From a virus (taxonomy: Duplodnaviria > Caudoviricetes): DNA of 55,716 nucleotides. Numbering within the stretch: the stretch's first letter is position 1; each line of letters starts with the position of its first letter. The stretch covers positions 1 through 55,716 of IMG/VR virus record IMGVR_UViG_3300024265_000060; one strand, 5' to 3'. Shown here piece by piece: positions 3,473 to 46,499 of this stretch. Below the pieces are notes generated by a model. The model saw nothing but the letters and a program-made list of their open reading frames with translations, was not told the origin of the DNA and ran no database searches. The position numbers and the translations under genes were made by a program.

Positions 3473-3997
3473 ATGAAGCAATGGACATGCGGCCACCACT
3501 TCCATGATCGGCGGGTCTACTTCGAGTCGAAAGCCGACTTCAAGCACCACATGGATGGCCATGCCGAGCAGCAAGGCCGATTGAAAGGCTGCCTCTGTAA
3601 CTGTCATACCGATACCGAGCATGTGATGTTCACCGGAGAGCATGATAACTGTCGAATGTGCATGGAAGAACTCGTCATAGAGGCAGAGGCAATGGGGAAG
3701 GCAGCGGCCGAGCAGCAGCCCCGGGGGCATGTGGCGGATTGTCGGTGCTGCAAGAAGCTGCGCGAGGCGGAAGCAGGATTAAAGGCACTGAATGAGGCGC
3801 ACGAATCGAGAATGAAAGAGCCGGGAGAAGTGCCCTGCCTCTGCTCGGAGTCATGCGGAGAGTTCCGCTGCTGGTTAGCTACATTTCGTGACGAAGCCCG
3901 CGCCGAGGTCGAGCGATTGAGACCAAACGGGAAATTGCCCACTAAGAGGTGCAGGAAAGCTACGAACAAAAGTGGAATGACGGGTGATGGTGGATAA
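3473..3997 (+). CDS. Cys/His-rich hypothetical protein
   Basis: 174-aa ORF with multiple Cys/His clusters. Confidence 0.6.
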   Translation: MKQWTCGHHFHDRRVYFESKADFKHHMDGHAEQQGRLKGCLCNCHTDTEHVMFTGEHDNCRMCMEELVIEAEAMGKAAAEQQPRGHVADCRCCKKLREAEAGLKALNEAHESRMKEPGEVPCLCSESCGEFRCWLATFRDEARAEVERLRPNGKLPTKRCRKATNKSGMTGDGG

Positions 3998-4436
3998 GCC
4001 ACAGCAATGTAAAGGTTGCCCATACTTCAGCCAACCTGGCCCAGTGTGGCCAGATGGGCCGAAAGATGCTAAGATAATGCTCATTGGCGAAGGGCCAGGC
4101 AGAGATGAGATTGCTGAAGGAAGAGGTTTTGTTGGGAGTGCTGGGCACGAACTCTGGGCTATTGGTAAGGCCGTTGGGTTGTTGCGTAGCATGTGTTGGG
4201 TTACGAACTTAGTTAAATGCTTGCCAATGGGGGCAGCAAGGGGAAATTATGCGTTGGACCCGGCGGCGATTAGACATTGCGGGCAGTTTTTGCTGAAGGA
4301 GATAGCTGGGTGCAAACCAAATGTGACCGTCCCAGTGGGGGGGATTCCGCTGCGGGCGTTGATATCGAAGGAACCGATAAGAAAATTTCGGGGGGCAACG
4401 ATGACGTCAAGCGAGAAGAAGTTATTGCTGACGTGA
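3987..4436 (+). CDS. uracil-DNA glycosylase family 4-like protein, N-terminal part only (lacks HPS motif B)
   Basis: CKGC, IMLIGEGPG (motif A), GRGFVGSAG, TNLVKC and IRHC give the Fe-S Cys set. The ORF ends shortly after FRG, before the HP motif. Confidence 0.9.
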   Translation: MVDKPQQCKGCPYFSQPGPVWPDGPKDAKIMLIGEGPGRDEIAEGRGFVGSAGHELWAIGKAVGLLRSMCWVTNLVKCLPMGAARGNYALDPAAIRHCGQFLLKEIAGCKPNVTVPVGGIPLRALISKEPIRKFRGATMTSSEKKLLLT

Positions 4437-4627
4437 ATAAGTTGCTGGATGAGTTGATAGAGGGGGAAGGGGATAAGGTTTTGTTGCTGGCTTTTATGAA
4501 TAGCCAAGGGCAGACGAAGGGTATGATTTGGAACTCAGGAAAGATGTTGGACTTGCAGGCGGTTGGGGATATGTTGAAGAAGGTTTTTTCTCAAGAGACG
4601 TTTGCTGAGGAAGGGAGTTTGAATTGA
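4433..4627 (+). CDS. hypothetical protein (start uncertain; possible C-terminal half of a split gene)
   Basis: Protein-like frame EEVIADVNKLLDELIEG...; the only nearby start is a GTG overlapping the UDG stop. Confidence 0.55.
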   Translation: MNKLLDELIEGEGDKVLLLAFMNSQGQTKGMIWNSGKMLDLQAVGDMLKKVFSQETFAEEGSLN

Positions 4628-4917
4628 GCTTGAAGACGAGAGTTGTAGAGTTGGAGCGGCAGGTACGGATGCAGTCTGAGATGGGTGGTGGTATCCAAAA
4701 TCGAATAACAAGCTTAGAAGCAAAGATTTTGGGTGCATATGTTGGTAATCCATACACGACCCTCTTCACCTTTGGTACTGCTGCAGCCCGAACAGGTGGC
4801 CTTGAAGAGCGCCTTGTTCGAGTTGAGACGGCTTTCAATAGGCTGCTTGATGAGAAAGCTGGCAAGTGTAAGGCTTGCAAACAACAAAAGCCAGTTGATG
4901 AAACGATGAAACTCTAA
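4624..4917 (+). CDS. coiled-coil hypothetical protein with C-terminal CxxC
   Basis: 97-aa ORF, GGGAG RBS, LExR repeats. Confidence 0.65.
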   Translation: MSLKTRVVELERQVRMQSEMGGGIQNRITSLEAKILGAYVGNPYTTLFTFGTAAARTGGLEERLVRVETAFNRLLDEKAGKCKACKQQKPVDETMKL

Positions 4918-5159
4918 TGTGGAGAATTGAATGGGACACGGACTGCACGGGGGCCGTGTATAATGGGGAGAGTTTGGCGTTCATGTTTGAATTGACTGAT
5001 TGTGGTGGGGATTCTAGGCATGAGGGCCATGAGAACATGAATGATTGTAAGGATTATGAGGGGCAGTTTGAGCAGTTGGAAAGCTTAATGATGTTCTTGA
5101 ATAGATATGGGTGGAGGAATAGTGAAGACGTTCAAGCTAACAAGCAAGTCAAAGGTTAA
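4917..5159 (+). CDS. hypothetical protein
   Basis: 80-aa ORF, TAATG-coupled to the upstream gene. Confidence 0.6.
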   Translation: MWRIEWDTDCTGAVYNGESLAFMFELTDCGGDSRHEGHENMNDCKDYEGQFEQLESLMMFLNRYGWRNSEDVQANKQVKG

Positions 5160-5457
5160 GCCGATTGGGGCGAGGGTGTTAGTGGTGCCGATACCCGTAC
5201 CGGATGAGACGACCAAGGGGGGTTTGTTGATTCCAGACACGGCTAAGGATAAGCCGCTCGTTGGGAAGATCGTTGCTTATGGGGATCCGAGTGAGACAGG
5301 AGCGGAGTTTGATGGGAAGTGGCCGCCGTTTCCAATCGGAACTGTGGTATTATATGGAAGGTTCGCGGGCGAGGACTTGAAGCTTGAGGATGCTAGGGAG
5401 GAATCGTGGCCGAAGATCATGACGATGCACGACCTTCTTGGCGTACTAGAGGGTTAG
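5122..5457 (+). CDS. groES: co-chaperonin GroES (Cpn10)
   Basis: VKPIGARVLV...ETTKGGLLIPDTAKDKPLVGKIVAYG...VLYGRFAG...DLLGVL is the Cpn10 signature; GGAGG precedes a GTG start. Confidence 0.92.
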   Translation: MKTFKLTSKSKVKPIGARVLVVPIPVPDETTKGGLLIPDTAKDKPLVGKIVAYGDPSETGAEFDGKWPPFPIGTVVLYGRFAGEDLKLEDAREESWPKIMTMHDLLGVLEG

Positions 5458-5993
5458 TTAGTCCTTATGAGGTAAGTCCGCCGGAATGGTTGAGATATTC
5501 GGGACTTGAGTGTCCGGAGTGTCACAATTCTGGACGCTTTGTTATTCACGCATATGCGGAGCAGCTTTTTGATCAAAACAAGCGCAAAAGAAGTGCGATC
5601 AGGTTCACGGACCTTGCTGAAGGTTGGACCGCGAGATTTGAATGTGCGAGGTGCTCGATCTTCTTCAAGGTTGGTGAAGATCGTGCCGATACTCCATCCG
5701 AGCTTCTTGTTGAGAGGGGGGTGGGCGTGGCGTGGCACGATGGCGAGAGATTTGCTAAAGATAAAGAACGAGGCGGAATTTCCGGAGGTTCGAAGACGTT
5801 CGGTGAGTTATTGCGGGGATTGGTTGCCAAAGCGGGTGAGAATTCCGGGAGAGGTTCCGGTGGCGGTCGATCTGGAGACGGTCAGAGGAAGACCGGGCGT
5901 GATAACGCAGGTGAACTGGGCGACAGAGGAAGGCTTAGCCTTCGCCGCTGGTTGGAACAAAGAGGTGGAGGCGGAGACAAAGAAAGCAGTTGA
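5406..5993 (+). CDS. zinc-ribbon protein (CPEC...CARC); C-terminal ~100 codons run out of frame over the polymerase
   Basis: GGAGG RBS before GTG 5406. The protein-like part ends near FFKVGE (~5678); the rest is a low-complexity overlap. Confidence 0.55.
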   Translation: MAEDHDDARPSWRTRGLVSPYEVSPPEWLRYSGLECPECHNSGRFVIHAYAEQLFDQNKRKRSAIRFTDLAEGWTARFECARCSIFFKVGEDRADTPSELLVERGVGVAWHDGERFAKDKERGGISGGSKTFGELLRGLVAKAGENSGRGSGGGRSGDGQRKTGRDNAGELGDRGRLSLRRWLEQRGGGGDKESS

Positions 5994-7659
5994 GGCAACT
6001 AGGACTATTGTCTTGCATAATGCTCAGTTTGACGAGGGAGAGTTTTGGCTGAATGGGATTGAGGTGGCGGGTCCGATCTGGGATACGATGATTGGGGCTG
6101 CGATTCTTGATCCGGACATGCCGAATAATCTTGAGCATGTTGCGAAGGATTGCACAGACTTGCCGCTTTGGAAACACCTTTCAGGTGTGGACTTAAGGGA
6201 ATATGGTTGTTTTGATGCGGATGCTACGATCCGTATTTTTAATTATCAAAAGCAGCAGCTAGGTGTCGAAAATGTGCGGGCGGTATTTGATACTAGTATG
6301 GAAGTGCTGCCGTTGCTGATTGATATCAGGCGGAAAGGGTTAAAGATTGATGTTGGAAAAATGCGCGCAATGGCTGGAGATTGTAAGGGAAAAGAGGAAG
6401 AGGCTGCGGGTGAGCTTAATCAAGAAGTTGCGAAGATTGAGAAGAGGGCGGAAGCGAAGGAAAGTCTTTTTTGTGAAGCAGCGAGGTTGGCAGACGAAGC
6501 CGCAAAGCTCAGAGAAGAGAGTAAAAAAGGCGCGGCGCTCAAACTGGAACGAGAAGCTAAGAGGCTGGTGAAGGCGGGGGAGTTACTGGTGAATGTGAAC
6601 TGGAATTCACCGAAGCAATTGACGGAGGTGCTGGATGACCTTGGGTTGCCAAGGAAGTATAGTAAGCACGGACGGCAGACGACGGATGCTGCGACGATGC
6701 AGGAGCTTGCGAGGGTTAGCGGGAACCCGATCTTGCTTAAGCTGCTTAGTTATAGACAAGCTAACAAGCTGCGGACGACATTCCTCCAACAGAAGTTCGG
6801 CGGGGATGAACGGGTTCATCCCACCTTTCTTCTTCACAGGGACTATGATATCGAAGGAGGGCTGGAAGGAGCTTGTACAGGCAGACTTGCTTGTAAAGAT
6901 CCCAACATGCAGAACTGGCCGAAGTCGGTGCGCGGGATTGTGGTGCCGGATGAGGATGGTTGGGAAATGGCTGCGGCGGACTATTCGCAGATAGAGTTTC
7001 GCATTATGGCTTGGAAGACTGGGGGGGAACTGTGGAAGAAGGTGAACGAGAATGGGTTTGACGTTCATACTATGGTCGCTGCGGAGGTTTTTAAGAAGCG
7101 GACGGACAACGTTACGCAGGATGAGAGATATCTAGGGAAGACCTCAGTCTATGCAGGGATTTATGGAGTGGGACCAATCACGCTTAGTCGGCAGCTGATG
7201 AAGAAGGGTATTTTTCTTCCGGTTGCCGAGTGCAGAAAGTTTCTCAATGCTTTCAAGAAGATGTTTCCGGATATTAAGAGGGTTCATAAGGCTGTTGTTG
7301 CGGAGGCTTATGCAACCAACAAGGTGACGAACCCGTTTGGGAGGTTTCGGCGGTTCTATAAGCCGTTCGCTGAGGCGACGGCGATTTATAATATCTTTCC
7401 GCAATCAACTGCAGGGGATGTTATCTTGAAGGCGATGGCGAGGCTTTATAAGGAGCTGCCAAAGCCCGCGAGAGTTGCGATCCAGATTCATGATGAGTTG
7501 GTTTTTTGTTATCCGAAGGAATTAAGAAAGGTTGTACATGAATGTGTTATAGATGTTATGACGGCGAAGCACCCGGAGCTGCCGGGGATGGCGTTCCCCA
7601 TATCCCTGAAGGCTGGAGACTCTTGGGGATCGATGAGTGGCAAGCGGGTGATAGGTTGA
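5674..7659 (+). CDS. polA: family A DNA polymerase with 3'-5' exonuclease; N-terminus carries UDG motif B
   Basis: Exonuclease motifs VDLET, HNAQFD, DTM and YGCFDAD; polymerase motifs TGRL, DYSQIEFR, RYLGKTSVYAGIYG, QSTAGD and IHDEL. Begins KIVPILHPSFLLRG. The frame is open from 5506 and the true start is uncertain. Confidence 0.95.
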   Translation: MKIVPILHPSFLLRGGWAWRGTMARDLLKIKNEAEFPEVRRRSVSYCGDWLPKRVRIPGEVPVAVDLETVRGRPGVITQVNWATEEGLAFAAGWNKEVEAETKKAVEATRTIVLHNAQFDEGEFWLNGIEVAGPIWDTMIGAAILDPDMPNNLEHVAKDCTDLPLWKHLSGVDLREYGCFDADATIRIFNYQKQQLGVENVRAVFDTSMEVLPLLIDIRRKGLKIDVGKMRAMAGDCKGKEEEAAGELNQEVAKIEKRAEAKESLFCEAARLADEAAKLREESKKGAALKLEREAKRLVKAGELLVNVNWNSPKQLTEVLDDLGLPRKYSKHGRQTTDAATMQELARVSGNPILLKLLSYRQANKLRTTFLQQKFGGDERVHPTFLLHRDYDIEGGLEGACTGRLACKDPNMQNWPKSVRGIVVPDEDGWEMAAADYSQIEFRIMAWKTGGELWKKVNENGFDVHTMVAAEVFKKRTDNVTQDERYLGKTSVYAGIYGVGPITLSRQLMKKGIFLPVAECRKFLNAFKKMFPDIKRVHKAVVAEAYATNKVTNPFGRFRRFYKPFAEATAIYNIFPQSTAGDVILKAMARLYKELPKPARVAIQIHDELVFCYPKELRKVVHECVIDVMTAKHPELPGMAFPISLKAGDSWGSMSGKRVIG

Positions 7660-7816
7660 CGAAGGGAGATGGGAGGTTGTACAGAATTGAGAAAATGAAC
7701 CGGGAGCATAGTTTTGTGATAATATCTATACCGGACATTACGACAGGAAGGATTCCATTAGTCAAGGCCGAGTTGTTGCAGGTGATGAAGGCAGGGTATG
7801 TGGGGGTGAGGAAGGT

Positions 7817-11577: not shown

Positions 11578-11589
11578 ATTATAGCATAC
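11578..11589 (-). promoter_or_regulatory. putative extended -10 promoter (GTATGCTATAAT)
   Basis: TGnTATAAT just upstream of the holin-like gene; a near-identical motif occurs at 48663-48674. Confidence 0.35.
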
Positions 11590-14500
11590 TATCCGAGTGT
11601 GAAGAATCCGCGTTTCTTGGCCTTTTTGCCGCCAATTCGTTCGATGATGCCACGGCCACCACGGGGGAGGGAACCTTCTTTTTTGCCGAAGAGAGGTCTG
11701 GTCACGTGGCGCATGATTTCGCGCCCAGCAGAGCGGTGAATTTGGACGCCAAATGGGATGTTATCGACGACGAGTTGGGCGGTTGATGGGGTGACTGGTG
11801 CGCCCCGAATCTTGTTTACTATGTCAACAGCGACGCCGAAGGCTGGGCCGGTTATTTCGAGATTCATCATGAGGCTGATTGGGTTGATGCGGTGGCCGAG
11901 TTCGAAGGGTTTGCCTTGGACGCCTTTGCCGATGAGGTAGTCGGCGGACAACCTGTCAACGGCGGCAACAGCCCCACCTACTAGACCCTTGCCGCTGAAC
12001 TCTGGTTCATCTTCGCCGAGTAACATGCGTAAGAAGGGACCAGTTATGTTTGCGTCTACGCCACCTACCATGTGGGTTACCATCATGTAGAGCGAGACGA
12101 ACTTGAAACTCTTGAAACGGGCTGCCTTGTCTGGAGAAAGAAACATGTTGCGAACTTCGCCGCCGAGAAGTTGCAGCATTTCGATGCGGTAGGGTGAAAA
12201 TTGGAACAAGACGGAGCCGAGGCCGGAGCGGACCAAGGGGAGGCGGCCGGTACGGGTCATGTTGAACTGGGTGAGGTCACTCTCAAGGATGCCTGCCACG
12301 AGCGACATGTTTTCGTCAATGCCTGCTTCGCGGGCGGTTTTGTTCATAGCTGCGAAAGCGAGCTTTCGGTTGCGGTTCTCGATGCCGGTGAAAGAGCGCC
12401 GACCGAGGGTACGCCAACGGATGAGGAAGCCTTTGATTTGGCGCTGAGCCTGGATGCCAATGTCGGAGCGCAAGGTTTGATCGGCGAGGCCGGAGGCATT
12501 GAAGAGCTTTTCGATTTCTGGGTTGCTGGAGATTTCTCTTGCTGCCTTTAGGTAGCCATCTATGCCACCCGCTTTGAAGGAACCGAAGCGAGCAGAGGTG
12601 GTGAATGGGCCTTGGGTTGCGTTGATGGCATTTGTAATGGCTGAGAATTCGATCTTGGCTGCAAAGACCGCGCCACGGATGGCGTTGGCGGTGCGAGTAA
12701 AGGGGCGGCTGTCGGAAACTGCGAGACGGCGAATCCAACGACTTAGCCCTTCGCCGAACGCACCACGGCCGGAGGTTTGAATGCCGAGGTCACGGAGTTT
12801 GCGGCTCAAGACGGTATCCATGGGGTCTGGTTCGCCAACTGAGTAGCGCATCCAACGTTTGAACCAGGCTGCTTGTTCGTTACCGAGGGCTTGGAAGACT
12901 TCGGGACGGTTGAATTCGGCTAGGAACGGGTCCCAAGCAATCTTGCGGGCAGCTCCGCGCAGATAAATGTCCATGGACTGGAGCGGAGCAATCTCGAAGT
13001 CGAGCGTTTCGGTCTTGCGCTTTTGGAAGTTGCCAAAGAAGACTTCCCGGCCTGGGTTCATGTCGGTGGGGATTTCGAGATTGCCGAGGGCGTTTTTGGT
13101 GTAGAGTTTTGGGAAGTAGTCTTCCGTTCGGGCGCTCGGAGGGAGGTGGGCAAGGTCGGCGACAGAGTCGTGGAGATCGGCTAGCATGGCGGCGCGACGT
13201 TCGAGTTCGGCGAAGCGGGCTGGGTTTTGTTCGCGAGTGGGTAAGAGGAGTTCGGTGGTGGCGGGCTTGCCCCCTCTCATGATGGTGGACATGTTTTGGA
13301 GGAGCTTGCGGGTTTCTGAGAAGGCAGAGCTGTCGTCGATCAAGGAACGGCGCGCGACTTTGCGGGCTGGGTCGGCTAAGACCTCGTCAAGGCGGCCTTC
13401 GCGAATGAGGCGGACGGCAATTTGTTCTTGAGGGGAAAGGTCAGCGAAGACGGGCGCAAGGGCGTTGTTCCAGTTTTTGAGCAGCTCCGTTTCCATGGCT
13501 TGAATGCCGCGACCTTTGGTGTATGCGTCGAGCATGACGGGGTGGGACCAGAAAACCATACGGCGGACGACAGATTGCAGGCGTTGGACGCCACCCGGAC
13601 CACCGCCCCACGCGACTTGGCCGGATGTTGGATCCATGACGGTGTCGTCGGTTGAGAGCTTAGGATTAAATCTAAGATCTTCGAGGGCAGCTTTGAAGGC
13701 TTCGATCTCGCGAGAGCGCTCTGCTGAGAAAGCTTTACCGGTGCCTTTAGCGGATGTGGGGAAGAAGTCTGCGGTTTCGCTAAGCATCGCACCGAGTTCA
13801 GTCTTCCGGAACTCTTTAAGGCGTTCGATTGCTTCGAGAACGTCGCCGCCGGTTACCTTGAGGCGGTCGGGGAGGCCGAACTTCTTGGCCATCTCGCCCT
13901 GCAAAGTTGCGTAGTCGTTGATAGCACCAGCATAGCCTTTGGCTTGGTTGGTTAGCTCACCCCAAAGCTTCCAAGCTGTGATGCCTTTGGTTGGTTTGAG
14001 CTTGCCGATCATTTCTGAGATATGGCGCATTTGTTCTGGACCTTCGAGCGCAGCAAACTCGGTGTTGTCGAGGCTCTCGCGCCACATCTTGGAACGGAGG
14101 TCGTTGCGAGTTGCACCTGCTACGTCGGAGCCGGATGGGGTGGCTTCGCCAGTTAAGATGTTGTAACTGTTGCCGGGGGTGTAATCGGTTTTGAGGATTT
14201 GCAGGACGCCGGAGCGGGTGAAGAGACCGAGGTCTGAGCCATCTCTTAGGTCTGTAACTTGGAAGCGAAGGAGGCCACCATCTTTTGCGGTTGAAGGCTC
14301 AGCGGCTTCGTTAACGATGCCGACAGGTTCAATGCCGAAGCGGACATTTGTGCGGACTGGGTCATAGTCGGGGTGAAGCGCGTGACTCCGGAAGGTGCCG
14401 ATGATTTCGGCGGATTGACGGTCGCGGATGGTGACGAGACGGGGACGAAGGTCGCCGAACTTGGTGGCGAGATTCTGGCCTGCAAGGGTGGTGTCGGGCG

Positions 14501-17500
14501 TGATTTCGAAGACGAAGTCGGTTGCTTTGCTGTTGGGCGCAGTTGGCTTGTTGCCTCCGCCGGGCGGGCCAGTTGGGGATGCTTGTTTGGGAGGTTTCTT
14601 GGAACCTGTGCCGCCAGTGCCGAGGGACGGAAAGGTGATGTCTGGGTATTCGATTCCGCGCCGATTTAGCTCGGCCGAGAGCTGGGCGACGGTTTCGTTG
14701 TTCTTTGTGGCTTCGGGGTTTTTTAGCTGAGAAAGGCGAGCCTTCCTGAAGCGTTCCAATAATAGGGGGTCACCTACCCCTTGGAGGCGACGATTTACGG
14801 CCTTAGCGGGCGGCTCAGAGCCTCCGATTAGACGGTCGGCCAGTTTTAATTGGCCTTGGGCTGGATCTGGGTCGATTGCAAGTTGAGCGTCCACGTCTTT
14901 GACGGCTGAGGCAAGTTCGTTTTCGCGGGTGAGGGCGGCACGGAATTGCCGCTGGAGGGTCTTGTTTTTTGGGTTGCGGACTAGGCGGTTGCCAAGTTGT
15001 TCGCGGGCTTGGGTCAGTTGGCCAAGGGTTTTGCGGCGCATGTTGTTGAAGTGTTCGCCGAAAGCTTTTCCGGCAAGCAGGTCTTCCTGGGGGCCTCTAG
15101 CGACGCCGCCTTTTGTTGAAGCTCCTGCTGGGAGGGTTCTAAGGATGAGCTGCTTGGGGCCTTGGGGGTCGCCGAAGTCAACCGACTTCGGATCGGTTCC
15201 TTTCTTGCCACCAAAGACACGTTCGAGCTTGCCGGTCCGGCGGCGGATGAAGCCTCGGAACTGGGCTCCGACTTCGGTCTCGGTCATGTTGAAGCGAGCG
15301 CCGACTTCAGCTAGGTCTACGAAGTCTACGCCTGCGGTGGATCGGCCGTGCTCGTCGATGCCAAGATGAAGCTGGAGGATGTCACGCTGGAGCTTGTTGA
15401 GCGAGGCCATTTCCTCAACGAGCTGAGCCTGGGCGGCCGGGTCCGGGTTGCCAATGAAGTCTTTGAAGAGCTTAAAGGGCTTGGAGCGGGGGCCTCGGGT
15501 GCGAGGCGCTGCCGCTAACGGAGCTGGTACGACGGTTGGTGTTCCAGCGATAGCTGTACCTTCACCTGTGCCTGCTTCGACGAAGTCAGCGAGGTCAACG
15601 GTTTCACCCTTCTTGTTGACGGCTGTGATGGACTGGCCTTCGGGGGTGACGCCGCCGAAAACTTTGAACTGAAGGTCTGCTATAATGCCTTTGATGCGGG
15701 CGTTTGTGATTTTGCCGGTTCGAGCAGCTTCAGCGAGGGCGGTTTCGCGCACAAAGCTGCCAAGAGTTTCGCCTGTTCCTTCAACGCCGAGTTCCAAGTT
15801 GATGCCCTTGAAGGATTTGCGGGCAACGGATTCGACGAGACGGTCGATGGGGGGCGTGCCAGTTTGGCTGACGTTACCTTTTTCGTCAGTTACTTTACCA
15901 GGAGTGATGAGGCGGGTGAGGAGCTTTTTGGTTTTCTCGGGTGTCTTCGGGTCTTCGAGGGTGGTGAAGGTTATTTTGCGGACGCGGTCGATGGAGGATT
16001 CAGGAGGTGTTGCGTCTTCAAGACCAACTGTTTTTGGCCTCACTTCACCAAGAAGATTTTCGATAGCTTGGTTGGCACGTTGGACTTGAGATCGGCGTTC
16101 GTTTTCAACTGCAATACGCTGTTTGGCTACAAAAAGACGTTCGCCACCGGGCTCGGGTCTGGGGCCGGAGGAACCGAACAAGGAAGTTTGGCCAGCAAAG
16201 CTCTTGCCGAACGGCAATGAGCCTTCGACGGTAAGGCCAGCGATGGAATATGGAGTGGCGGTCAGGCTGTCGTTGATGGCTCTAAAGCGTTCTGGCTCGC
16301 GGACGAAGACAGCGTCTGGGTCGATGAGCATTTGGTCGAAGCCGTGGGCGAGGTCTTCGACTGGGCTGCGGCGGTCGAAACGGATGCGGCCGTTTTTGGC
16401 TTCTTCGGGAAGGACTGAGCGAATCCACTTTCCGCCGAGTGGGCCAATATCAAAGGAGGAAATGGCGTTGATAGTTTCGCCAGAGGCAGTTAGGAATGTG
16501 CGACGACGGGCATCGAAGACGTTGTTTGGGACGGAGTCGTTGGGGAAAGCTTCGTCTTTGGCGGATGCGACACGGTTTCTTTCGATGAACTCGGCTTCTG
16601 GGACCCAGCCCAGGCTACGAATGTCACGTTCGTAGCCTTTTGGGTTTGCGGTCGCGAGGGAATGTTGGCCTTCGTGCGCTAGGGTCTTGATGAGCATATC
16701 GAAGCCGGGGATACGGAGGGTGTTGATGTTTGTGGTGGTGCGAGGGAGGCGACCTGCATTGACCGTGACTGCGCCAGTATTTTTGTTGAAGCGGCCGAAG
16801 GTGTTGTCAGGGAGCTGGTCAGAAATGTGGACTCGGGTTACGTTGGCAAGAGCCTCTGCAGGCAAGACGCTGAGGGCTGATTTTACTTGCTGAACGCCAA
16901 GTTTTGACTGGCCGGTTGTGACGGTGACAGGAATCTTGATGCCATTTATGTTGAGGTCATTGACGGCTCCAACGAAGCTACGAAGTAGGGGCGGTTCGGC
17001 AGAAACCAGGTCGGCTGCACGGTCTTCGAGTTCTGGCTTAGCGGTCAGCTTACCAAGCAACCCCTCAAGCCTATTGATCTTAGCTCGGTTGGCCGTTGGC
17101 AACATTTCTTCGAGGCCCTTCTTGTCAAGGACAAGAAGCTCGCCAGCCTTTCCGCGTTCAAGCGTAACGATGTCATGGACGACGGGCAGTTCGCCACGTC
17201 GGGCGACGATGCCAACTCGCATTGACTTGCCATCTTTGGACCGCTCAAGGAACTGAACAAGCCGCCTCGTTTTGCCTCGGACCTGCGCGACCAAGTCTCC
17301 TTCTTTGATGATGGCCGGACGGTCGGCTAAGATTTTGCCTTCGGAGATTCGCCGCGCCTTCATCTCTCGAACACCTTCAGGAATGTCTGCGTTCACGCCA
17401 CCTTGTGGATCGCCGGGGCGGTAGTCTCTAATCAGTCCATCGTCGGTGCGGATGGTGAAGGTTCGGCGACCTGTGTTGTCGAGCTGGGTGCGCATCAAGG

Positions 17501-18716
17501 TAACAGGTTCGAGGGATTTTTGGCCAGCTCGGTTGATCCAGGCTGGGAGTTTCATGCCGGGCCGCGCCTTGCCCCCTCCTAGGACAGCAAACAGACCGAA
17601 GTCGAAGAGAAGCTGGTCGATGTATGGGTTGCCGGTTGGGCGGGCGGGGGAGGTGGAATCGCCAGTAAGGGCAACGAGTGGGAGGCCAAGGGCTGCTCCG
17701 CGAGCACCTAAACTAAGCCTTGAAAAGGCTAGTTTGCCTTGGAGTTGGCCGCCAAACAAACCTGGCAGCTTCTCGCTCAGTTTGCGGAGTCCAGGGATGC
17801 CGCTGAAGGTTCCCTTTGCGGTGGGGACCAAGAGGCTACCGAGTGCTGCACCATGGGCAATCGAAACGGCGGTTTGGGTTGGACTGAAGCCTTCTTGATT
17901 CTCGGGGGCGTCGCCGAGGATGCCTGAGACTTGGTTGACTACGTCTGCTGCGCCGGTTGCAATGCCGAGTTGGACTGCGTGGGCGAGGCGGGGCGCGAAC
18001 TTGCCACTTGCGAAGCCTTCAGCGAGACGAGTAAAGAAGGGGGAGACGCGGCCGACCTGACCAAAGGCTTTCTTGACTAGACCAACCGCCCCACTAATGG
18101 CCTTTAGGCCGGTGGCAAGGCCGATTGATTCTTCAACGAAGCGTTCGGTGGGGGAAAGTTCGCCTCCGGGTAACAGACGTTCTTTGATTTGAGCCGAGCC
18201 AAAGAGTTTCGGAAGGCCAAAGGTAAGCCCTTCAACGGCTGTGGTTATGCCACGCTGTGCTCTTGCGAGTTCGCGTTCGCTACCGAAGTCTTTTCTAAGG
18301 ATGTTTGGAGACTCGTCTGGGCCAAGGATTCTATTGCCACCGACAGTTGCTTCCGGGGAGGGGGCAATCCTGGTGGGGTCTTGCAGAAATGGTTCTTCGA
18401 CGCTTTCTGAAGGAATGATGCCTGGGTCGAAGCGGCCAGTTGGTGCGGTTACGCGAGGCAGTCCAGGCGAGACGCGGCGCTCTAATGGATCGCCAGTAGC
18501 TGTTCCACCTGGTGGAACAGGGTCTGGAGCTATTCCGAGTTGGTTTAGGATGGATGCTTGGTCCTGGGGTTTGTCAACGGAGTCTGCGAAGAGGGTGTCG
18601 AGGCGAGACTTGCGTTCTGGAGTTTCTTCGTCTTCAATGCCAAGGAGAGCGTTTAGGCGGCTACGTTGCTTGTCAACTCCGAAGAGTTTATCAAGGCGTT
18701 CGCGAGGCTCTGCCAT
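11589..18716 (-). CDS. giant (2375 aa) polyvalent internal virion/ejection protein
   Basis: Position after the ejection-like genes; zincin HEGQH motif with downstream EDLAH; sigma70-region-4-like HTH; helical C-terminal region typical of large polyvalent proteins. Confidence 0.8.
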   Translation of the reverse strand: MAEPRERLDKLFGVDKQRSRLNALLGIEDEETPERKSRLDTLFADSVDKPQDQASILNQLGIAPDPVPPGGTATGDPLERRVSPGLPRVTAPTGRFDPGIIPSESVEEPFLQDPTRIAPSPEATVGGNRILGPDESPNILRKDFGSERELARAQRGITTAVEGLTFGLPKLFGSAQIKERLLPGGELSPTERFVEESIGLATGLKAISGAVGLVKKAFGQVGRVSPFFTRLAEGFASGKFAPRLAHAVQLGIATGAADVVNQVSGILGDAPENQEGFSPTQTAVSIAHGAALGSLLVPTAKGTFSGIPGLRKLSEKLPGLFGGQLQGKLAFSRLSLGARGAALGLPLVALTGDSTSPARPTGNPYIDQLLFDFGLFAVLGGGKARPGMKLPAWINRAGQKSLEPVTLMRTQLDNTGRRTFTIRTDDGLIRDYRPGDPQGGVNADIPEGVREMKARRISEGKILADRPAIIKEGDLVAQVRGKTRRLVQFLERSKDGKSMRVGIVARRGELPVVHDIVTLERGKAGELLVLDKKGLEEMLPTANRAKINRLEGLLGKLTAKPELEDRAADLVSAEPPLLRSFVGAVNDLNINGIKIPVTVTTGQSKLGVQQVKSALSVLPAEALANVTRVHISDQLPDNTFGRFNKNTGAVTVNAGRLPRTTTNINTLRIPGFDMLIKTLAHEGQHSLATANPKGYERDIRSLGWVPEAEFIERNRVASAKDEAFPNDSVPNNVFDARRRTFLTASGETINAISSFDIGPLGGKWIRSVLPEEAKNGRIRFDRRSPVEDLAHGFDQMLIDPDAVFVREPERFRAINDSLTATPYSIAGLTVEGSLPFGKSFAGQTSLFGSSGPRPEPGGERLFVAKQRIAVENERRSQVQRANQAIENLLGEVRPKTVGLEDATPPESSIDRVRKITFTTLEDPKTPEKTKKLLTRLITPGKVTDEKGNVSQTGTPPIDRLVESVARKSFKGINLELGVEGTGETLGSFVRETALAEAARTGKITNARIKGIIADLQFKVFGGVTPEGQSITAVNKKGETVDLADFVEAGTGEGTAIAGTPTVVPAPLAAAPRTRGPRSKPFKLFKDFIGNPDPAAQAQLVEEMASLNKLQRDILQLHLGIDEHGRSTAGVDFVDLAEVGARFNMTETEVGAQFRGFIRRRTGKLERVFGGKKGTDPKSVDFGDPQGPKQLILRTLPAGASTKGGVARGPQEDLLAGKAFGEHFNNMRRKTLGQLTQAREQLGNRLVRNPKNKTLQRQFRAALTRENELASAVKDVDAQLAIDPDPAQGQLKLADRLIGGSEPPAKAVNRRLQGVGDPLLLERFRKARLSQLKNPEATKNNETVAQLSAELNRRGIEYPDITFPSLGTGGTGSKKPPKQASPTGPPGGGNKPTAPNSKATDFVFEITPDTTLAGQNLATKFGDLRPRLVTIRDRQSAEIIGTFRSHALHPDYDPVRTNVRFGIEPVGIVNEAAEPSTAKDGGLLRFQVTDLRDGSDLGLFTRSGVLQILKTDYTPGNSYNILTGEATPSGSDVAGATRNDLRSKMWRESLDNTEFAALEGPEQMRHISEMIGKLKPTKGITAWKLWGELTNQAKGYAGAINDYATLQGEMAKKFGLPDRLKVTGGDVLEAIERLKEFRKTELGAMLSETADFFPTSAKGTGKAFSAERSREIEAFKAALEDLRFNPKLSTDDTVMDPTSGQVAWGGGPGGVQRLQSVVRRMVFWSHPVMLDAYTKGRGIQAMETELLKNWNNALAPVFADLSPQEQIAVRLIREGRLDEVLADPARKVARRSLIDDSSAFSETRKLLQNMSTIMRGGKPATTELLLPTREQNPARFAELERRAAMLADLHDSVADLAHLPPSARTEDYFPKLYTKNALGNLEIPTDMNPGREVFFGNFQKRKTETLDFEIAPLQSMDIYLRGAARKIAWDPFLAEFNRPEVFQALGNEQAAWFKRWMRYSVGEPDPMDTVLSRKLRDLGIQTSGRGAFGEGLSRWIRRLAVSDSRPFTRTANAIRGAVFAAKIEFSAITNAINATQGPFTTSARFGSFKAGGIDGYLKAAREISSNPEIEKLFNASGLADQTLRSDIGIQAQRQIKGFLIRWRTLGRRSFTGIENRNRKLAFAAMNKTAREAGIDENMSLVAGILESDLTQFNMTRTGRLPLVRSGLGSVLFQFSPYRIEMLQLLGGEVRNMFLSPDKAARFKSFKFVSLYMMVTHMVGGVDANITGPFLRMLLGEDEPEFSGKGLVGGAVAAVDRLSADYLIGKGVQGKPFELGHRINPISLMMNLEITGPAFGVAVDIVNKIRGAPVTPSTAQLVVDNIPFGVQIHRSAGREIMRHVTRPLFGKKEGSLPRGGRGIIERIGGKKAKKRGFFTLG

Positions 18717-45617: not shown

Positions 45618-46499
45618 GTGCGAAGTTACCCGAAGATTTTCGCGCTTGGACATAAAGCTGTCAAGGAGTTGCTTGATGGTGAGGTTGTTGTTCAAGAGAA
45701 GATTGATGGTAGTCAGTTTAGCTTTTGTTTGAAGAGTGGCAAGTTGGAGATGAGGAGCAAGGGGGCTGTTATTGATCCTGATGCGCCTCCAAGCTTGTTT
45801 AGCTCGGTGGTTGCAGGGATTAAAGAGATTCAGGATAAGCTGCATCCTGGTTGGAGTTATCGCGGGGAGCAGCTGAGTAAGCTGAAGCATAATACGATTG
45901 AGTATAAGAGGCTGCCAAAGCGGCATTTTGTGTTGTTTGACGTGGATACAGGAATGGAGGATTTCTTGACTCCACGAGAAATGCATGTTGAAGCGGAGCG
46001 GCTTGGGGTGTCGAGGGTTGCTTTGCTTGGGCAGTTTCCGGGGAAGATGTTGACGGAGAAGTTGATTGGAGAAATGATTGATGGGCCAAGTACGCTTGGT
46101 GGAGTTATTGAAGGGATTGTCATTAAGGCTTATGGGCGGTTTGGGGAAGATAAGAAAACGCTCATGGGGAAGTTTGTGAAGGAAGAGTTTAAGGAGGCTC
46201 ATAGGGCTGCTTGGAGTAAGACGAACCCGAGTGGGAAAGATGTTGTTCAGAAGTTGATTGAGGGGTTGAGGACTGAAGCTAGGTGGGAAAAGGCTGTTCA
46301 GCATCTTAGGGATGGTGGGTTCCTAGTAGATGAGCCAAAAGACATAGGGTTGCTGTTCAAAGAGGTCAATAGGGACGTTCTTGAGGAAGAAAAGAGCGAG
46401 ATCGAGGTGGTCTTGTTTAAGTGGGCTTGGAAAGATGTTTCAAGGGGGATTACGGCTGGGCTTGCTGAGTGGTATAAACGAGAGTTGATGAAGAGGTAA
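45618..46499 (+). CDS. ATP-dependent RNA ligase (Rnl2-like)
   Basis: YPKI, motif I EKIDGSQF, GE, FVLFDV, motif IV EGIVIK and motif V GKFVKEEFKE; GGAGGAG RBS before GTG. Confidence 0.88.
   Translation: MRSYPKIFALGHKAVKELLDGEVVVQEKIDGSQFSFCLKSGKLEMRSKGAVIDPDAPPSLFSSVVAGIKEIQDKLHPGWSYRGEQLSKLKHNTIEYKRLPKRHFVLFDVDTGMEDFLTPREMHVEAERLGVSRVALLGQFPGKMLTEKLIGEMIDGPSTLGGVIEGIVIKAYGRFGEDKKTLMGKFVKEEFKEAHRAAWSKTNPSGKDVVQKLIEGLRTEARWEKAVQHLRDGGFLVDEPKDIGLLFKEVNRDVLEEEKSEIEVVLFKWAWKDVSRGITAGLAEWYKRELMKR

Follow-up and report, generated by a model that had tools for sequence, protein, structure and literature searches.

A uracil-DNA glycosylase domain of family 4 in two pieces at a phage DNA polymerase locus

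How can a phage gene for a uracil-DNA glycosylase (UDG) end inside its own fold, with the missing part of that fold standing at the head of a DNA polymerase gene downstream? The question is raised by IMG/VR record IMGVR_UViG_3300024265_000060, a complete virus record of 55,716 bp that was analyzed at its full length and is referred to here as the window. Both halves lie on the plus strand: the UDG N-fragment gene (UDG-N) at 3984..4436 and the gene for a family A DNA polymerase (PolA) at 5671..7659. They are in different frames and ~1235 nucleotides (nt) apart, and five co-directional open reading frames (ORFs) separate them. An original prediction had seen here a single UDG-PolA gene, interrupted by a segment of ~1.26 kb that would be removed at the RNA level, passed over by a very long translational hop or excised from the DNA. 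As an alternative, it named a UDG that is naturally split and reassembles in trans. It is this alternative that the evidence favors, and removal of the segment found no support in the comparative data. The locus is probably a gene in pieces, divided by an insertion, with both halves retained, separately translated and reassembled non-covalently on the polymerase. The coordinates originally given for the upstream ORF, a pair of GAAGA repeats, the arms of a hairpin and four long-range helices were exact; because these features can all be located in the sequence, the split is real and far beyond chance.

The two halves of the glycosylase domain

The UDG N-fragment gene encodes 150 amino acids (aa) from GTG3984, with ATG3987 as an alternative start. 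Its product matches the Pfam UDG profile (PF03167) with an E-value (E) of 2.1e-19 and 70.4 bits (cut-off 24.3), a match limited to profile positions 3-100 of 141, and aligns with residues 9-140 of 205 of the Thermus family-4 UDG 1ui0 (E 4.8e-18). GEGPG at residues 35-39 and the cysteines C9, C12, C79 and C99 are what we take to be, by name and by role, the motif A (GE[AG]PG) and the four iron-sulfur (Fe-S) cysteines of family-4 UDGs; Asn75 is present as well. Profile match, motif A and the four cysteines together assign the fragment to family 4. The polypeptide stops 13 residues past the invariant Arg136-Gly137 and does not carry motif B (HPS), which is instead found at PolA residues 9-11, counted from TTG5671. 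The originally predicted distribution of the motifs, with motif A and the four cysteines on the upstream ORF and motif B at the PolA head, was confirmed in the sequence.

The downstream gene product matches the Pfam families DNA_pol_A (E 1.6e-64) and 3'-5' exonuclease (E 2.7e-07), and its frame from 5671 reads LVKIVPILHPSFLLRGGWAWRG. The first ~40 residues of PolA correspond to the C-terminal piece missing from the UDG fold, namely the strand KIVPIL, motif B and a helix. Queried by themselves, PolA residues 1-60 found nothing meaningful in a sequence search of the PDB.

UDG-PolA fusions are known from N4-like (cluster 17), SPO1-like and SP15-like (YerA41, phiLo) phages, as described by Czernecki et al. 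in 2023 (PMC10201439) and by Missoury et al. in 2026 (PMC13697223). According to the latter, the active UDG domain of the fusion excises dU ahead of the fork; such fusions couple uracil removal to replication. The window pieces resemble these proteins in combining a family-4 UDG-like domain with a family A polymerase that has a 3'-5' exonuclease, and they align with them end to end. Unlike in the fusions, the window domain is cut inside the fold and lies on two chains, and the identity of the window PolA does not exceed 29% with the IMG/VR fusions and is ~24% with the SPO1-like phages. A literature search that did not extend to supplements found no report in which a UDG domain is cut internally and its motifs are divided between two chains.

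The split among related polymerases

Close relatives of this locus were found at the protein level. A nucleotide search with 3900-7700 against 50,697 deposited phage records gave no match, a single-protein scan of IMG/VR gave no relative, and a profile scan of IMG/VR gave relatives at no more than 29% identity. A scan of genome contigs matched 38 patterns, with no relative among them. A PolA search over 5.8 billion clusters returned the window's own product (P0001) and 10 close relatives of 519-702 aa at 46-83% identity. None of these 10 nearest relatives has a UDG Pfam domain, and the matches that come next are fused UDG-PolA proteins, one of 805 aa at 31% identity and one of 748 aa at 28%. 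Seven of the 10 (P0002, P0003, P0004, P0005, P0006, P0008 and P0010) start no more than 50 residues before motif B, two (P0007 and P0009) are called from a Met just past the motif B strand, and the remaining one (P0011) is an N-terminally truncated fragment.

Two of the relatives, like the window, have DNA around the polymerase gene. In the locus L082, whose PolA is 83% identical to that of the window, UDG-N (456-890) is followed by ORF A, ORF C, groES and the zinc-ribbon ORF, after which PolA begins at 1883; ORF B is missing. In L083 (51% identical), UDG-N (2516-2980) is followed by ORF A, groES and a different small ORF, and PolA begins at ATG3740. The order UDG-N, ORF A, groES, PolA is thus the same in all three loci, and the gap between UDG-N and PolA amounts to ~1235 nt in the window, ~993 nt in L082 and ~760 nt in L083, with ORF B and ORF C gained or lost. 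Fused relatives present the other arrangement: in every one of the 27 IMG/VR loci that matched UDG as well as PolA, the two share a single uninterrupted frame. When the window pieces are aligned with one of these (L002), UDG-N up to residue 150 and PolA starting with residue 2 cover neighboring stretches, with an overlap of 18 nt. By these alignments the window locus appears to descend from the UDG-PolA fusion family.

A maximum-likelihood tree of 37 PolAs was built by a quick search with SH-aLRT (Shimodaira-Hasegawa-like approximate likelihood ratio test) support in place of the bootstrap; it omitted P0011 and all but 19 of the 80 IMG/VR loci. The 11 short PolA forms make up one clade (SH-aLRT 99) whose sister is the fused P0012 (SH-aLRT 98), and both are nested among fused forms. 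From this tree we infer that the ancestral state was fused. An additional short form, P0014, stands on a long branch just outside the split clade and may represent either a second fission or a misplacement, between which the tree does not distinguish.

The break can also be followed from the side of the glycosylase. A profile made from five split-clade UDG-N sequences was used in an exhaustive HMMER search of 1.84 billion representative proteins. The 10 best matches are 141-164 aa long and terminate 5-15 residues after the invariant RG; the 11th is the fused P0012 (805 aa). The alignment also took in four more short matches that ranked lower, and their tails run 7-18 residues past RG. Since the tails differ in length after the same RG, the break is always in the same hairpin, although not at the same residue. 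C9, C12, C79, C99, G35, P38, R136 and G137 are invariant in all 16 aligned UDG-N rows. Taken together, these comparisons point to a split that is old and common to a clade. Two fused relatives from IMG/VR (L007 and L010, upstream of 8001) have a UDG-like domain that lacks the cysteines and has SP for HP at motif B; these are, judging by their motifs, degenerate UDG domains retained on PolA.

As a separate observation, residues 79-87 (window 4219-4245) read CLPxGAxxGxY in split-clade UDG-N and CRPPxN in fused relatives, so that the split clade has ~4 additional residues beside the third Fe-S cysteine relative to the fused forms.

The start of PolA was compared across the same sequences. In the window, the candidate starts are GTG5644, TTG5671, GTG5674 and GTG5683. 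A local hairpin at 5656..5683 (plus strand), with an 8-bp stem and a 12-nt loop, has the arms CGATCTTC and GAAGATCG at 5656-5663 and 5676-5683, and its loop holds AAGG and the codons TTG5671 and GTG5674. The original prediction of a hairpin at this start was supported, the structure being better than chance (dG -15.7, z-score -2.41, equaled by 2 of 200 shuffles); one of its stem pairs is disrupted in L082, by reading. The accompanying claim of a weak ribosome-binding site (RBS) did not stand. The RBS candidates are GGTGA 5 nt before GTG5683 and AAGG 3 nt before GTG5674, and in 14 of the 38 long ORFs of the genome the best RBS match upstream of the first start codon is of at most 3 nt; the PolA RBS does not stand out in this genome. 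In L083, PolA has its own ATG3740, which overlaps the stop of the upstream ORF (ATGA) and lies 9 codons before motif B. In P0005 and P0006, a Met start is found 7-10 residues ahead of motif B.

Selection and predicted assembly of the halves

The ratio of nonsynonymous to synonymous substitution rates (dN/dS) was estimated from comparison of the window with L082. The values are 0.142 for UDG-N, 0.111 for ORF A, 0.153 for groES, 0.181 for the zinc-ribbon core and 0.078 for PolA; ORF C, at 0.79, is under weak constraint. In the first 30 PolA codons dN/dS falls to 0.014. The synonymous rate in these codons is high (dS 1.04, with 12 synonymous differences), so no RNA structure is preserved there. 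Both halves are under purifying selection. Two ORFs that cover adjoining parts of an ancestral protein, each with its own stop or start and each under purifying selection, are the gene-level mark of a gene in pieces, and they are found here. A recently broken UDG now being lost from the genome, as the truncated ORF and its partial Pfam match might suggest, is next to inconceivable given the dN/dS of UDG-N, the invariance of its cysteines, motif A Gly and RG in sequences 32-58% identical to the window fragment, and the persistence of the same architecture over a clade with PolAs down to 46% identity.

In co-folding, which had been proposed as a check on the original prediction, the two fragments were predicted to assemble. 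The complex model was computed from UDG-N (14-row alignment) and PolA residues 1-60 (11-row alignment) and scored 0.89, 0.89 and 0.90 in three runs, as compared to 0.01 for the best of 3 controls. The score mark used is attained by 58 of 80 solved complexes and by 2 of 110 mismatched pairs. Contact agreement between the runs was at least 96%, and the predicted local distance difference test score (pLDDT) of the partner was at least 69. In the model, the N-terminal strand of PolA enters the UDG sheet: residues 114-119 and 138-139 of UDG-N flank PolA residues 3-7, and the PolA helix at residues 21-32 rests on UDG-N residues 60-66. The modeled topology is that of an intact UDG. UDG-N reaches a pLDDT of 89 with the true partner and falls to 65 and 61 when the partner is unrelated. 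Folded by itself, PolA has a mean pLDDT of 84.3 and a predicted template modeling score (pTM) of 0.82, with residues 1-26 below 50.

A course of events consistent with these results can be proposed. The ancestral locus would have been a single gene encoding a family A DNA polymerase with a fused family-4 UDG domain. A small gene cluster would then have inserted inside the UDG domain, at the beta-hairpin turn between Arg-Gly and motif B; the insert would comprise ORF A and groES in every case, with other small ORFs variable. UDG-N would end at its own stop and PolA begin at its own start a few codons before motif B, giving two polypeptides. The 150-aa chain would hold motif A, the four Fe-S cysteines and the conserved Asn, and the PolA chain would supply the last strand, the motif B His and the closing helix. 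By strand insertion, with no covalent link, a UDG-like domain would be rebuilt on the polymerase with an active site drawn from both chains. By analogy with the fused enzymes, as Missoury et al. describe them (PMC13697223), the rebuilt domain might scan the template for uracil ahead of synthesis.

Several observations weigh against this account. DNA context is available for three clade members, the window, L082 and L083. The window PolA start is non-ATG, ambiguous among the four candidates and within the hairpin. Separate translation of the halves is inferred, and their reassembly is the prediction of a structural model. The fold whose halves are joined in that model has many solved structures, and the passing score may reflect this likeness only; our own alignments were used in it, so the calibration of the score holds only roughly. 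The motif B His is lost in P0003 (LPLSF as compared to LHPSF in the window), and the PolA of L083 (3740-5725) has HSG in place of HPS; because this His is not kept everywhere, catalysis may not be the conserved function. Both P0003 and L083 retain the strand around motif B and the start of the GGWAWRG helix, and structure may be conserved more than catalysis. To these points can be added the predicted duplex between the flanks of the insert in the window, at -37.7 kcal/mol, an energy that 4% of 400 equally spaced pairs of segments taken from this genome reach or go below.

The loss or change of the catalytic His in P0003 and L083 also bears on an explanation in which the halves do not reassemble. 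UDG-N would then act independently, for example as an Fe-S protein that binds DNA or uracil, and the motif B stub would be needed by the PolA N-terminus only. The degenerate domains of the fused L007 and L010, which lack the Cys and HP motifs, would fit such a role, as would the N4-like UDG-PolAs described as being without catalytic residues by Czernecki et al. (PMC10201439). We consider this unlikely. The complex model separates the true pair from all controls, and confidence in the UDG-N fold drops without the true partner. The stub has a dN/dS of 0.014 and remains unplaced when PolA is folded alone, and UDG-N always ends at the same hairpin.

Gene fission followed by reassembly on the polymerase therefore remains the preferred reading for the reasons given, and a stronger form of it can be put forward tentatively. 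In this form, which we regard as possible but would not yet favor, the two chains make an obligate UDG whose active site is shared with the replicase, and uracil is recognized or excised only on a polymerase that carries the fragment; the arrangement would be kept clade-wide, with groES and ORF A embedded in it and, in part of the clade, a zinc-ribbon tail selected to stay open.

Comparable cases of fission are known. In T7-like cyanophages (S-SBP1-like), PolA is split between its exonuclease and polymerase parts, and AlphaFold2 predicts reassembly to the unsplit structure, according to Czernecki et al. (PMC10201439). The two cases are alike in that a phage PolA-related protein is split and predicted to reassemble. 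The cyanophage split falls between domains, results from a 1-nt frameshift and leaves adjoining, overlapping genes, whereas the window split is intradomain, results from a multi-gene insertion and divides the catalytic motifs between chains. In the Aeromonas phage Aeh1, nrdA is split by the homing endonuclease gene mobE, and the pieces assemble without RNA splicing, protein splicing or DNA rearrangement, as reported by Crona et al. (PMC3045599). There too, an essential replication-related phage gene is fragmented by inserted DNA and its products assemble at the protein level, an assembly that is predicted in the present case. Unlike mobE, the window insert, which consists of groES and small ORFs, has no homing endonuclease recognizable with Pfam or PHROG, and assembly is predicted to occur by beta-strand complementation within one fold and not through new tails. 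The window locus would add to the few documented phage genes that survive fission through protein reassembly, here with an intradomain break made by a multi-gene insertion. A natural split kept across a clade also offers a built-in test of how the UDG domain docks and of whether it needs to be tethered to the replicase.

Junction signals and the genes between the halves

What, then, of the signals that had been read as marks of a precisely removable segment? The GAAGA repeats lie at 4415..4419 and 5676..5680 (plus strand), the downstream copy being in the 3' arm of the hairpin and in the Lys-Ile codons of PolA. By arithmetic, both joins that had been proposed at this pair are in frame, the one giving a fused product and the reciprocal one at the junction of a circle. 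As a junction signal, the repeat did not hold up. In 40% of 5000 shuffles, the 42-nt UDG tail and the 55-nt PolA head had one or more 5-mers in common in frame (P ~0.40). The place aligned with the upstream copy reads GAGCA in L082, where tail and head share no 5-mer at all; in L083 they share two, both out of frame. The insert is not flanked by any direct repeat of 10 nt or more.

The pairing of the flanks is marginal. In addition to its position in the 4% tail of the genome controls, the same or a lower duplex energy was reached in 1.25% of 400 dinucleotide shuffles. The duplex partly reuses the CTTCTTC arm of the local hairpin. The corresponding duplexes of L082 and L083 are within controls, with 10.7% and 9.3% of control pairs as low. 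The four long-range helices proposed have 30 of 37 pairs in the window and 22 of 37 in L082 when compared in ungapped register, although bulged registers may have been intended. Nowhere in these helices have both partners of a pair changed between the window and L082 with the pairing retained. Break points that vary among relatives, and pairing that is not conserved in them, are the pattern that the original prediction had itself set against excision, and this is the pattern found.

As had been noted originally, features of group I or II introns and of inteins are absent. Rfam gave 0 matches at E up to 1 on either strand of 3800-6000, and the intein splicing domain PF14890 has no match in the genome (the control was positive in 6 of 14 genomes). 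Pfam finds on the two half-gene ORFs either UDG only or PolA and exonuclease only, with no intein domain. Tails of 5-15 residues and heads of 3-10 residues leave no room for intein halves. Tyrosine and serine recombinases (PF00589 and PF00239) have no match in the genome, with controls positive in 14 and 12 of 14 genomes, respectively. A search with PF09511 matched none of the control genomes and is uninformative. The RNA ligase that had been reported in this genome is present, with a PF09414 domain (E 6e-15) at 45681-46142 inside a 306-aa open frame, and nothing was found that links it to the split locus.

Discontinuous coding regions with a single product are known from other systems. Translational bypass in T4 gene 60 joins a discontinuous coding region into one product, and Dassa et al. 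reportedly described fractured genes with split inteins. The window is like these in having a discontinuous coding region for what would be one functional product, and unlike them in having neither an intein domain nor a conserved pair of take-off and landing sites. Translational bypass employs matched, conserved take-off and landing codons and a short gap, and the known cases span tens of nt. A matched in-frame pair is found in the window only, with none in L082 and none in frame in L083, and the gaps in these loci are 760-1235 nt.

Public sequencing runs were also consulted; one DNA run (X1) and no RNA run contained the stretch. In X1, which consists of contigs and may be the source of the window DNA, a single contig of 18,294 nt spans the whole stretch, and neither 4419 nor 5681 has a joint nearby, although contigs cannot show rare forms. 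The only joint in X1, from 3915 to 4006, comes from a relative's 264-nt contig with a depth of 2.8.

Precise removal of the ~1.26-kb segment, whether by RNA cutting and ligation, a very long hop or DNA excision, is accordingly very hard to credit as a source of a fused UDG-PolA. The in-frame GAAGA pair with its reciprocal junction, the low energy of the flank duplex and the encoded RNA ligase are what speaks for it; against these stand the frequency of such 5-mers by chance, the decay of the helices in L082 without compensation, the variable gap length over three loci, the span of known bypasses, and the lack of any Rfam, recombinase or intein match or longer flanking repeat. The signals read as precise excision are not beyond chance. 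A striking split with in-frame junctions can in this case be explained without a new mechanism of splicing, hopping or excision.

The X1 sample contains a related phage with a different region upstream of UDG-N. Two low-depth contigs (145 and 264 nt, depth ~3) are 90-95% like parts of window 3708-4092, and in one of them 3916-4005 is swapped for 22 other letters.

The five ORFs between the halves are all on the plus strand, and none of them has a homing endonuclease or recombinase match in Pfam or PHROG at the thresholds used. ORF A (4433..4627, 64 aa) is found in all three loci with DNA, always next after UDG-N (L082 ~905-1096; L083 2977-3138), with a length of 50-64 aa and no Pfam or PHROG match. 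Its GTG overlaps the UDG-N stop (GTGA, 4433-4436), and the L083 counterpart begins at TTG2977, which overlaps a TGA stop (TTGA, 2977-2980). Together with the ATGA at the PolA start of L083, these stop-start overlaps along the string suggest translational coupling. The original prediction had used circularization of the removed piece to account for the starts and ends of ORF A and the zinc-ribbon ORF. Since the GTGA overlap is a plausible coupled start for ORF A, no circle junction is required there; the zinc-ribbon ORF has a stop of its own (5991-5993) and the same length, 195 aa, in the window and in L082, so circularization is not required for it either. ORF A could be a third partner of the split enzyme.

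In all three loci, the frame of ORF A also remains open upstream, for 110-160 nt within UDG-N. A -1 frameshift leading out of UDG-N into ORF A was considered and set aside, as no canonical slippery heptamer was seen and the local sequence is not conserved in L082.

ORF B (4624..4917, 97 aa) is missing from L082 and L083; it looks by eye like a coiled coil and has no family match in Pfam or PHROG at the thresholds used. ORF C (4917..5159, 80 aa) has a homolog in L082 at 1096-1374, and none was recognized by eye in the ORF list of L083, where no search was made. The predicted groES in the interrupting segment was borne out: the gene for a groES-like co-chaperonin (5107..5457) matches Pfam Cpn10 (E 8.4e-13) and the PHROG co-chaperonin GroES (E 3.8e-09) and is present in all three loci.

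The zinc-ribbon ORF (CPEC...CARC, 5406..5993) overlaps the start of PolA in another frame with its last 107 codons (5671-5993; 1883-2205 in L082). A homolog search with this ORF returned only the window's own 195-aa product. The overlapping frame contains 0 stops, as compared to 6.45 (window) and 5.78 (L082) expected from resampling of synonymous PolA codons (P 0.0003 and 0.0010), and subsequent 107-codon windows of the same frame have 5-11 stops each. PolA third-position divergence is not lowered in the overlap (0.40 as compared to 0.43), and amino-acid identity of the overlap, at 56%, is the same as that of non-coding frames (44-56%). The pattern looks like selection for an open frame that leaves its sequence unconstrained, and the overlap may be a real overlapping tail or a device for ribosome transit at the PolA start.

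This overlap invites an explanation in which PolA is made as a zinc-ribbon fusion by programmed frameshifting. Near the PolA start the zinc-ribbon ORF contains no stop, the two frames are open together over 5506-5993, and the hairpin stands at the junction. An upstream extension of PolA, which such a fusion would use, was nevertheless rejected, since the PolA frame before 5671 is open at the level of chance given the zinc-ribbon protein (P 0.36 and 0.55). A +1 shift would be needed, no recognizable slippery or stop-hungry site was seen by reading, and L083 has a clean stop-start overlap at this point. Frameshift fusion is therefore highly improbable, and a separate start for the PolA half is retained in the account of fission and reassembly preferred here.

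Promoter-like and terminator-like sites occur at the level of shuffles (7 as compared to 4.3, standard deviation 2.4, and 6 as compared to 4.1, standard deviation 2.2, respectively). Elsewhere in the window, a single ORF of 2375 aa occupies 11589-18716 on the opposite strand.

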